A DNA stretch of 64,000 bases from an uncultured Gemmatimonadota bacterium (GTDB lineage Bacteria > JAAXHH01). The stretch spans positions 3,520,001 through 3,584,000 of the forward strand of contig OX638340.1 in assembly GCA_951812955.1 (NCBI GenBank), written 5' to 3'. The stretch's first letter is position 1. Every line of letters starts with the position of its first letter. The translations under genes were made by a program, and so were the position numbers. Below the pieces are notes generated by a model. The model saw only the letters and a program-made list of their open reading frames with translations. It ran no database searches and was not told the origin of the DNA. Positions 18,577 through 19,502 of the stretch are shown piece after piece.

Positions 18577-18828
18577 ATGACCGTAATGTCCCGCGAAAAC
18601 TGGGCCTTTGGAGCGCAGATCGTGTCAGCTATTGGCATCCTCGTTATCGCGATTGTCACCTTCAGCGATCAATCCAACAAGGAATTCCGGGATGAGATTC
18701 GGACCGAATTGACCGGGTTGCGCACGGACATGCGATCCGAATTTGCCTTGATTCGTTCCGAAATTCATGATCTGAACACACGCCTCGGTCGGGTCGAAGG
18801 TTACTTTCGCGTGTCTGGTAACGAGTAG
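18577..18828 (+). CDS. small membrane-anchored coiled-coil protein (paralog 1 of 3)
   Basis: GGAGAGGAG RBS then ATG. N-terminal TM (IVSAIGILVIAIVTF) then amphipathic E/R-rich helix (RDEIRTELTGLRTDMRSEFALIRSEIHDLNTRLGRVEG). Confidence 0.5.
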   Translation: MTVMSRENWAFGAQIVSAIGILVIAIVTFSDQSNKEFRDEIRTELTGLRTDMRSEFALIRSEIHDLNTRLGRVEGYFRVSGNE

Positions 18829-18953
18829 AGATGATTCCTGCATTCAACGTCTACCGAAGAGCGAGATGAATAGCGATCATTGATGAGTAGCGAAATCTGA
18901 TGAATGGCGAAATCTGATGAAGATCAGTGCGATTAGATACTGAGGAGTCAGTA

Positions 18954-19166
18954 ATGGGTGAAAACGGGATGAGAGATTGGTCGTGGACTCCGATTCTTAC
19001 CATGGCCGGTATGCAGGTTATGATGACCGGTATAATTGTTACAATCATGCTCTACTTAAACAGTGATCTAAGTAATAGGATGCTATCGGTGGAAGAGAAA
19101 TTGAGAGACTTGAATGAAGATGTATCAGGACTGGAGACCAGGCTCGATGAGAGAAAGCAAGAATAG
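18954..19166 (+). CDS. small membrane-anchored coiled-coil protein (paralog 2 of 3)
   Basis: GAGGAG RBS 7 nt before the ATG at 18954. TM (ILTMAGMQVMMTGIIVTIMLYL) then coiled coil (SVEEKLRDLNEDVSGLETRLDERKQE). Confidence 0.5.
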   Translation: MGENGMRDWSWTPILTMAGMQVMMTGIIVTIMLYLNSDLSNRMLSVEEKLRDLNEDVSGLETRLDERKQE

Positions 19167-19208
19167 TCAAAGTAGAAACTTGATCTGATCTCAAGGACGC
19201 AGGGTACT

Positions 19209-19502
19209 ATGGAAATCGCTCAACTGGTCGTATCGCCGGCTATCTTGCTGGGAGCATTCATCTTCTTCTGGAAGGAATCCAAAGCGGGAAGAATGGAGCT
19301 GGAAACCCGGCTGGTAAAGCGCATGGATCGCATAGAGGACAGGCTGGATGCACGCATCGTCTCCCTGGAGGACAAGATGGATGCGCGCTTTATCGCTCTG
19401 GAGGACAAGATGGATGCGCGTTTTATCTCTCTGGAGGACAAGATGGATACGCGCATTGGCCGGCTGGAAGGGGTGCTCATCACACAACAGAAGGTGTCCT
19501 GA
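19209..19502 (+). CDS. small membrane-anchored coiled-coil protein (paralog 3 of 3) with 9-residue tandem repeats (S/ALEDKMDARFI)
   Basis: TM (VVSPAILLGAFIFFW) then three 27-nt repeats ctggaggacaagatggatgcgcgcttt. Confidence 0.5.
   Translation: MEIAQLVVSPAILLGAFIFFWKESKAGRMELETRLVKRMDRIEDRLDARIVSLEDKMDARFIALEDKMDARFISLEDKMDTRIGRLEGVLITQQKVS

Follow-up and report, generated by a model that had tools for sequence, protein, structure and literature searches.

PspB is a protein of approximately 75 amino acids in which an N-terminal membrane helix is followed by a cytoplasmic zipper-like helix. In the cytoplasmic length classes of the methyl-accepting chemotaxis proteins (MCPs), a membrane-tethered coiled coil with a conserved tip varies in length by heptad insertions and deletions (indels) that preserve register. 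The CCDC90-like or DUF1640 proteins (PF07798; MCUR1, CCDC90B, and bacterial homologs) possess a C-terminal membrane helix, an N-terminal head, and, where the stalk begins, a beta-layer motif, [aliphatic]-A-T-K-x-[DE] (PMC4786415). In DUF2730 (PF10805, the phage Mu gp25 "releasin"), an N-terminal membrane helix, predicted to be oriented N-out/C-in, precedes a cytoplasmic domain, and in transposable phages the corresponding gene is found no more than 5 genes downstream of that for an endolysin (PMC9239132). Here we describe three genes, g1, g2, and g3, in a 64-kb stretch of contig OX638340.1 from an uncultured Gemmatimonadota bacterium (the whole stretch is referred to below as the window). All three are genuine genes, and each encodes a very small membrane protein with a single pass. 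The trio is filed under no named family and belongs with the membrane-anchored coiled-coil stalk proteins in general. The reading that we put forward, with a little less than an even chance of being correct, is that the products are membrane-tethered, N-out/C-in, homo-oligomeric coiled-coil stalks.

In sequence terms, the closest known match would be the CCDC90-like/DUF1640 stalk, which is likewise a membrane-anchored coiled coil. Two tail-anchored bacterial proteins found with the g1 profile (P0174 and P0176) have 11-residue repeats, EMKAEFxAVRS, that are nearly identical, and they score above the PF07798 cut-off; hendecad periodicity is common to these PF07798 members and to g3 (3.64 residues; 33-nucleotide [nt] repeats). 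N-anchored relatives scored 22 to 30 bits versus a cut-off of 33.5, and PF07798 matched 5 of the 61 members of the g1 family (best E value, 4.5e-4); g1, g2, and g3 themselves gave no PF07798 match. In contrast to the CCDC90-like proteins, the trio has its anchor at the N terminus, has no head domain, and, on direct reading of the sequences, has no beta-layer ATKxD/E motif, whereas the family described here has a conserved C-terminal tip motif and a membrane-helix Gln of its own. The likeness to MCPs is one of analogy only: MCPs are hairpins of hundreds of residues with signaling domains, whereas the trio proteins are single helices with no sequence similarity to them.

Coding evidence and anatomy of the three proteins

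An initial annotation of the window had called three consecutive genes, and + strand open reading frames (ORFs) of 83, 70, and 97 amino acids were indeed found where it had placed them (Table 1). When compared with orthologs in related contigs, all three genes were under purifying selection, with ratios of nonsynonymous to synonymous substitution (dN/dS) of 0.10 to 0.18 for g1, 0.12 to 0.20 for g2, and 0.07 to 0.25 for g3. Database homologs numbered 100, 21, and 34, respectively, all unnamed or "hypothetical" and, where the source was named, from Gemmatimonadota metagenome-assembled genomes (MAGs). Because of these ratios and homologs, the ORFs must be more than chance occurrences. The trio is AT rich, as had been noted, with a guanine-plus-cytosine (GC) content of 0.43 to 0.51 versus 0.60 to 0.66 downstream. 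Such low GC, together with tandem repeats in both coding and intergenic sequence, would be in keeping with spurious ORFs in AT-rich repetitive DNA; however, this explanation has next to no credibility and is, judging from the substitution pattern, already refuted. Besides the dN/dS values (0.07 to 0.25), it conflicts with residues that are invariant over 61 sequences, in-frame indels that keep helical register, and the ribosome-binding sites found. These sites are of the GGAG type ahead of g1 and g2 (GAGGAG ahead of the ATG at 18954 in g2), and that of g3 is weaker, so that the annotated strong site for each gene held for the first two and not for the third. The g2 product is 3 residues short of its 73-residue orthologs, and the end of the gene in the window, gaa TAG tca aag tag (19161-19166) versus an ortholog ending in KQEWSK, is consistent with a TGG-to-TAG change. 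No further family copies were present in the window.

Each product contains one N-terminal hydrophobic segment, with the best 19-residue Kyte-Doolittle window at residues 11 to 29 (g1), 14 to 32 (g2), or 3 to 21 (g3), and a charged segment with a hydrophobic periodicity of 3.56, 3.52, or 3.64 residues, respectively. AlphaFold2 monomer models consisted of helices 3-31 and 35-78 for g1 (predicted local distance difference test [pLDDT], 66) and of a single helix, 10-96, for g3 (pLDDT, 83). The annotated design, an N-terminal membrane helix followed by a charged amphipathic helix, was borne out by the hydrophobicity profile, the periodicity of 3.5 to 3.64, and these helical models. Alignments (A2, A3, and A5) displayed the same body plan throughout, namely, a short N-tail, a membrane helix with a Gln, a coiled-coil stalk, and a tip. 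The N-tail of the family has a median length of 7 residues and a mean of approximately 0.9 Lys or Arg. In 130 of the 133 members that were gene called, Lys plus Arg were more numerous in the 15 residues after the membrane helix than in the N-tail as a whole; an N-out/C-in orientation is predicted because of this bias. In g3, the N-tail is the dipeptide ME and the helix is followed by KESKAGR; like g3, the members of a large MELAQLL... subfamily have 2-residue N-tails without positive charge and Lys or Arg right after the helix.

A Gln was found in the N-terminal part of the membrane segment in 159 of 173 distinct family segments, usually within the motif Q-x-x-[STAC]-A-x-G, and Q14 was invariant in the g1 family (61 sequences). 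Helices within membranes commonly associate through polar residues and small-residue motifs, and the membrane helix of this family is predicted to be an interaction module and not a generic anchor. At the other end, the tip motif (M)N-x-R-L-G-R-V-E-G (tip peptide, DMNTRLGRVEGYL) lies approximately 8 residues from the C terminus in g1 and g3 and is common to several subfamilies; residues R69, L70, R72, V73, E74, and G75 were invariant in g1 alignment A2. At one locus (L037, 3132-3593), the tip motif is triplicated in tandem (RLGRVEGRLGRVEGRLGRVEGHL).

The stalk between these two elements is made of 11-residue (hendecad) and 7-residue units. For g3, exact 27-nt repeats coding for three copies of the 9-residue sequence LEDKMDARF had been annotated; the actual unit proved to be 33 nt, or 11 residues, with 3.7 copies at 19335-19457 and 85% matches (Tandem Repeats Finder). 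The units at 19362, 19395, and 19428 had 30/33, 28/33, and 27/33 bases in common (82 to 91% identity), and only the 18-mer CTGGAGGACAAGATGGAT was exact in triplicate within the array; LEDKMDARF occurred twice, the third copy being LEDKMDTRI. On an 11/3 helical wheel, the g3 consensus, [LM]-E-D-[KR]-[ML]-[DE]-x-R-[IF]-x-x, placed hydrophobic residues at 0, 33, and 65 degrees, Lys or Arg at 295 and 327 degrees, and Asp or Glu at 98 and 131 degrees. The hydrophobic seam was thus narrow (3 of 11 positions), with a basic flank on one side and an acidic flank on the other, a pattern that would suit parallel bundles held by inter-helix salt bridges and not a helix lying flat on lipid. The 11-residue repeats might instead be in-plane amphipathic helices of the apolipoprotein, LEA, perilipin, or YtxH type, tethered through the N-terminal helix and forming a stress or desiccation coat on the membrane or on a lipid or storage body. 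They have the 11/3 periodicity of such repeats, and sub-threshold matches to the Pfam Apolipoprotein A1/A4/E family (PF01442) recurred in 9 of 23 g3-family members (best E value, 6.2e-7), with g3 itself at 20.5 bits. Yet all of these scores were far under the 90-bit cut-off, and a surface-lying helix would need no strict register between Gln and tip. Because the seam is narrow (0 to 65 degrees) with opposite charges on its flanks, a coiled coil is favored over a lipid-binding helix, and we regard a lipid coat as quite unlikely.

Helical spacing and the proposed stalk

Members of the g1 family were 72, 79, 83, 86, 90, 97, or 102 residues long and differed in steps of 4, 7, or 11 residues. The g3 family ranged from 75 to 152 residues in 11-residue steps, expansions of the heptad VIKQEVD gave 7-residue steps in the g2 family, and stalk lengths over the whole family were 19 to 160 residues. 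On these length series, the family is shown to diversify via gain and loss of repeat units with register preserved. In 234 distinct sequences, the number of residues separating the membrane Gln and the first tip Arg had a best period of 3.63 with a power of 116.8, versus a maximum of 10.2 in the 2,000 jittered sets used as the null. When each distinct length was counted once (n = 46), 0 of 2,000 jittered nulls reached the observed power. The distances in g1 (55 residues) and g3 (77 residues) both fell on the 3.63 ladder, along which the Gln and the tip are always separated by whole helical turns, and 3.63 residues per turn is the value for an undistorted alpha-helix (PMC4786415). Together, the quantized Gln-to-tip spacing, the anatomy, and the stepwise length variation indicate that each protein would be one continuous, essentially untwisted helix in which the membrane polar face, stalk core, and tip are in register. 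The family also offers a natural experiment on coiled coils: hundreds of single-helix variants differ by 4, 7, or 11 residues, and their Gln-to-tip spacing is locked to 3.63 residues per turn. This spacing may be taken as evidence, directly from sequence, that an untwisted bundle runs unbroken between the membrane helix and the tip.

In the mechanism that we propose, the proteins would insert N-out/C-in and assemble into parallel homo-oligomeric bundles (dimers to tetramers), with the membrane-helix bundle running straight into the stalk. Such tethered stalks, or rulers, could hold the conserved tip and its binder at set distances from the cytoplasmic membrane face, approximately 5 to 10 nm for the trio and 3 to 24 nm across the family as computed at 0.15 nm per residue. 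Several points weigh against this proposal. The oligomeric state, the topology, and the function are each a matter of inference. For g1, the AlphaFold2 model is of low confidence (pLDDT, 66), with a kink at residues 32 to 34. The g2 product is without the tip motif and is not demonstrably homologous to the other two. Any conserved motif that sits on a regular amphipathic helix would be expected to show quantization, which favors a continuous in-register helix but no particular function, and the sequences in the test are phylogenetically related, their kinship being partly controlled via the distinct lengths. Positive-inside counting is a weak guide where the C-terminal domain is rich in both charges, and the N-tails of g1 and g2 contain one Arg each.

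This last point also speaks for the opposite orientation, N-in/C-out, in which the products would be periplasmic stalks of a presumed two-membrane bacterium, that is, envelope spacers like Braun's lipoprotein or the Rz spanin, with the tip on peptidoglycan or on an outer-membrane partner. Stalks of 3 to 24 nm are within the range of periplasmic widths, and g2 gave a weak PHROG match to an Rz-like spanin, with an E value of only 0.17. The charge distribution argues otherwise, both in the bias toward the C-side in 130 of 133 members and in the uncharged 2-residue N-tails of g3 and the MELAQLL... subfamily. Neither a lipobox nor a Cys was present in g1, g2, or g3 when the sequences were read directly, no lysis cassette or outer-membrane spanin partner gene was found, the predicted topology is opposite to that of the Rz spanin, and no envelope gene context was found around the family loci. 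We consider periplasmic stalks unlikely.

Kinship, named families, and the wider family

The initial annotation took the three genes to be paralogs, which was upheld for g1 and g3 and not for g2. In pairwise BLASTP comparisons, the sole likeness detected was that between the C-terminal motifs of g1 and g3 (LNTRLGRVEGYF versus MDTRIGRLEGVL), and the family profiles of these two genes aligned over the membrane helix and the C-terminal motif with an hhalign probability of 88.7% (E value, 2.6e-6). By both methods, the g3 tip RIGRLEG was aligned with the g1 motif NTRLGRVEG. Two natural hybrids (P0206 and P0220) have a g1-type tip (MNGRLGRVEGLL) together with a membrane helix of the g3 type (MELAQLLITP..FIFFWKQ). 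On these comparisons, g1 and g3 are assigned to one family. Neither pairwise nor profile comparisons revealed significant similarity of g2 to g1 or g3; what g2 has in common with them is its architecture, the conserved Gln in the membrane helix, and a fixed place between the two.

The trio had been annotated as belonging to no recognized family, and profile searches agreed: no family in Pfam, NCBIfam, PHROG, PADLOC, or the PDB reached threshold for g1, g2, or g3, and the genes fall in a large uncharacterized family and not in a well-characterized one. When members of this family were included, the Pfam, NCBIfam, PHROGs, and PADLOC scans returned coiled-coil noise only. The PDB profile search returned designed or apolipoprotein-type coiled coils and a Giovannonibacteria helix, 7o97, with RIGRVE in common (E value, 1e-4); a literature search on this uncharacterized structure found no paper.

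One of the roles suggested in the initial annotation, in membrane stress, corresponds to a PspB-like or YhcB-like adaptor of envelope stress or biogenesis, in which an N-out helix with a cytoplasmic leucine zipper would relay membrane stress. Size and predicted topology match, and g3, alone of the three, gave weak matches (NCBIfam E value, 0.076; Pfam E value, 0.71). The scores, however, were 10.4 versus 25.6 bits for PF06667, 11.5 versus 51.7 for TIGR02976, and 13.4 versus 90 for NF006993, and the genes beside the trio included neither pspA nor pspC, whether in the window or at the 17 loci of relatives that are syntenic with it; the locus is no psp operon. Moreover, the trio family is repeat variable, is present in 2 to 17 or more copies per genome in contrast to the single-copy PspB, and has a tip motif that is absent from PspB. 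An adaptor of this kind is decidedly improbable, and the stress proposal is not supported.

The initial annotation had also offered hemolysin XhlA-like and phage-derived proteins, and a lysis accessory left by a prophage (Mu gp25 releasin, XhlA, or a holin-like protein) would be the corresponding explanation. DUF2730 proteins resemble the trio in being approximately 100 residues or less and in consisting wholly of an N-terminal membrane helix, with a predicted N-out/C-in orientation (PMC9239132) like the one predicted from charge bias for the trio, and a cytoplasmic domain, and faint precomputed PF10805 matches exist on a few homologs, as do weak PHROG matches to unannotated families. Against this, PF10805 was not listed for g1, g2, or g3 even at an E value of ≤10, and neither PF10805 nor XhlA was listed at an E value of ≤0.01 for the trio or among the families reported for the 61 g1-family and 23 g3-family members. 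XhlA (PF10779) gave no match for g1, g2, or g3, and the one relative to score for it, the distant P0187, reached 19.8 bits versus a cut-off of 34.7. PADLOC gave 0 matches, and two scans of IMG/VR viral contigs yielded one chance tip-motif match in a 584-residue protein and no relatives by the g1 profile. Unlike DUF2730 genes, the trio sits at a syntenic chromosomal position, between SelD-like and RDD genes, that is conserved in many genomes, and no phage genes or endolysin were found among its neighbors in the window. The locus context and the negative viral-contig scans therefore largely exclude a phage origin, to which we attach very little probability. Phage or envelope-stress genes had been suggested as possible neighbors of homologs; what was found was the conserved SelD-like/RDD setting and, elsewhere, housekeeping genes.

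An exhaustive HMMER search with the g1 profile identified 891 proteins at an E value of ≤1e-3. Many of these had an N-terminal membrane helix, n repeats of approximately 11 residues of the type E-[ML]-R-x-E-F-x-x-[IV]-R, and a C-terminal (M)N-x-R-L-G-R-V-E-G-x-L, and others contained the same repeats in tail-anchored DUF1640-type or soluble proteins. One protein of 3,006 residues (P0157) matched the profile in 22 separate stretches (E value, 3.3e-27); the same repeat unit thus also builds giant proteins. When 185,579 species-representative genomes were scanned with the back-translated motif M-N-x-R-L-G-R-V-E-G, 92 loci (L018 to L109) were obtained, versus approximately 9 expected by chance on a uniform-composition estimate. 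The loci of five genomes (Kaistia, two Acidobacteriota, a Chloroflexia MAG, and an Ectothiorhodospiraceae MAG) had no family ORF, and these matches look like chance. The remaining loci came from approximately 22 MAGs labeled Gemmatimonadetes, "Candidatus Latescibacterota," or "bacterium" (the last being complete chromosomes of 3.7 to 3.97 Mb), a gammaproteobacterium of the Rariloculaceae, and a single Chloroflexi MAG; the names Gemmatimonadota and Latescibacterota are given as the submitters assigned them, unreconciled. Within these loci, 164 family genes were found, with as many as five arranged in tandem, and each genome has at least 2 to 17 of them, spread over as many as 9 separate loci. 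Among distant members, one is annotated as from Candidatus Poriferisodalis (Acidimicrobiia) and one as from a gammaproteobacterial MAG. When ORFs of ≥100 residues from the 92 loci were clustered, no recurrent partner gene emerged; clustering yielded only orthologous housekeeping synteny (GatA/GatB, PPK2-like, and dioxygenase genes), and the largest "cluster" around the family loci consisted of antisense ORFs of the family genes themselves.

The isolate names (IRC1, APA, and Plut), the genus name Poriferisodalis, and the LRR island described below suggest that the hosts of these genes are sponge or coral symbionts. Both Gemmatimonadota and Latescibacterota are phyla typically found among MAGs from sponges (Robbins 2021, PMC8163846); the putative link to sponges and corals rests on MAG and organism names and on phylum data, and literature searches on the habitats of Poriferisodalis and Rariloculaceae added nothing to it. 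A bolder proposal, which we offer as speculation and think rather doubtful, is that the trio belongs to an undescribed "membrane ruler" family that is tied to this habitat and exchanged between phyla. In favor of such exchange, the family occurs in Gemmatimonadota and "Latescibacterota" MAGs, in Candidatus Poriferisodalis, and in gammaproteobacterial MAGs. Each protein would be a continuous helix from a membrane bundle zipped by Gln to the conserved tip. Register-preserving slippage of repeat units would give each genome a graded set of stalk lengths, and with this set a partner in the cytoplasm or envelope could be placed at fixed spacings, which would adapt the bacteria to living within an animal. 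The gene content of uncultured Gemmatimonadota-type symbionts would gain a family of tiny membrane proteins, multi-copy and unnamed, whose genes current annotation pipelines call "hypothetical" or overlook. The trio family settles no long-standing question; the points of note are its size, its lineage restriction, and the helical-turn quantization of the stalk.

The chromosomal locus and its repeats

By its conserved surroundings, the trio is shown to be a syntenic chromosomal cassette, one locus of a multi-locus family. In relatives, SelA-like and AIRS/SelD-like genes lie upstream of the cassette and convergent RDD, MR_MLE, and M14-peptidase genes lie downstream, and the last three are also present in the window (Table 1). 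The arrangement g1-g2-g3 was found in the window and in L010 to L013, g1-g1'-g2-g3 in L001 to L008, g1-g3-g3' in L009 and L014 to L016, and g1 alone in L017. In L001 and L005 (4625-4902), the first g1 copy is split by a frameshift and is, for this reason, probably a pseudogene. Between g3 and the convergent RDD gene, the gap is 14 nt (19503-19516), with no predicted terminator; RDD and MR_MLE overlap by 46 nt (19948-19993), if the longest ORFs are the real genes.

Table 1. Positions of the trio, its sequence elements, and neighboring features in the window
Feature	Position	Strand	Remarks
Three large LRR/Big_2 "eukaryote-like" proteins	4602-6980, 9083-14005, 14064-18176		In island
Native region upstream of g1, probable promoter or leader	18270..18576	+	Conserved blocks; includes GGAGAGGAG ribosome-binding site just before ATG
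g1	18577-18828	+	ORF, 83 aa; family member of the subfamily with MSRENWAFGAQIVSAIGILVIA...
g1 membrane helix (residues 11-29)	18607..18663	+	Conserved Gln14, QxxSAxG motif; Kyte-Doolittle window
g1 tip motif RLGRVEG (residues 69-75)	18781..18801	+	Alignment A2
17-nt intergenic tandem repeat (GATGAATAGCGAAATCT, 3.4 copies)	18865..18921	.	g1-g2 spacer; Tandem Repeats Finder
g2	18954-19166	+	ORF from ATG, 70 aa; single-pass protein with heptad coiled coil
g3	19209-19502	+	ORF, 97 aa; membrane helix residues 3-21, hendecad stalk, tip RIGRLEG
Four 33-nt (11-codon) units RIEDRLDARIV, SLEDKMDARFI, ALEDKMDARFI, SLEDKMDTRIG	19329..19460	+	Tandem Repeats Finder, register, identities
g3 tip motif RIGRLEG (residues 82-88)	19452..19472	+	BLASTP, hhalign versus g1 motif
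RDD gene	19517-19993		Convergent to g3; same downstream gene as relatives
MR_MLE gene	19948-21147		Convergent; same downstream gene as relatives
M14 peptidase gene	21159-24116		Convergent; same downstream gene as relatives

In relatives without an island, g1 directly follows the SelD-like gene. In the window, the two are separated by an island of approximately 14.2 kb (about 4016-18243) with lower GC, which is bounded by an exact 15-nt direct repeat, CCCTGCGGGACTGAG, at 4001-4015 and 18244-18258. The repeat copies the 3' end of the AIRS/SelD-like gene, and its chance expectation is 0.13 (matches with up to 2 mismatches). The right-hand copy confirmed the annotated position of the trio just to the right of the island.

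Approximately 300 nt upstream of g1 are native to the locus, with blocks kept in the island-free relatives L009, L011, and L014, and this region is the probable promoter or leader of g1. The blocks at 18300-18420 (CTTACTTTT..AAAAA.AACGAGA, CCGACTAA, and GTCAG) are kept across all related loci. Within them, a hairpin followed by a T-run lies on the - strand (18360-18341); this region may terminate the SelD-like gene, serve g1 as its promoter, or encode a small RNA. Rfam gave no match in 17800-20000, and a promoter and terminator scan returned chance level only. An ORF at 18265-18501 was considered as a relic of an IS1595-type transposase and rejected; it had no match in Pfam, and the same stretch is kept upstream of g1 in island-free relatives.

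The tandem repeats of approximately 17 bp that had been annotated in the g1-g2 spacer were found there (Table 1). Their copy number varies among strains: the window and L010 have 3.4 copies, L011 has 4.4, and the more distant relatives L018, L074, and L094 have one each. TGATGA stop codons lie inside the 17-nt repeat units.

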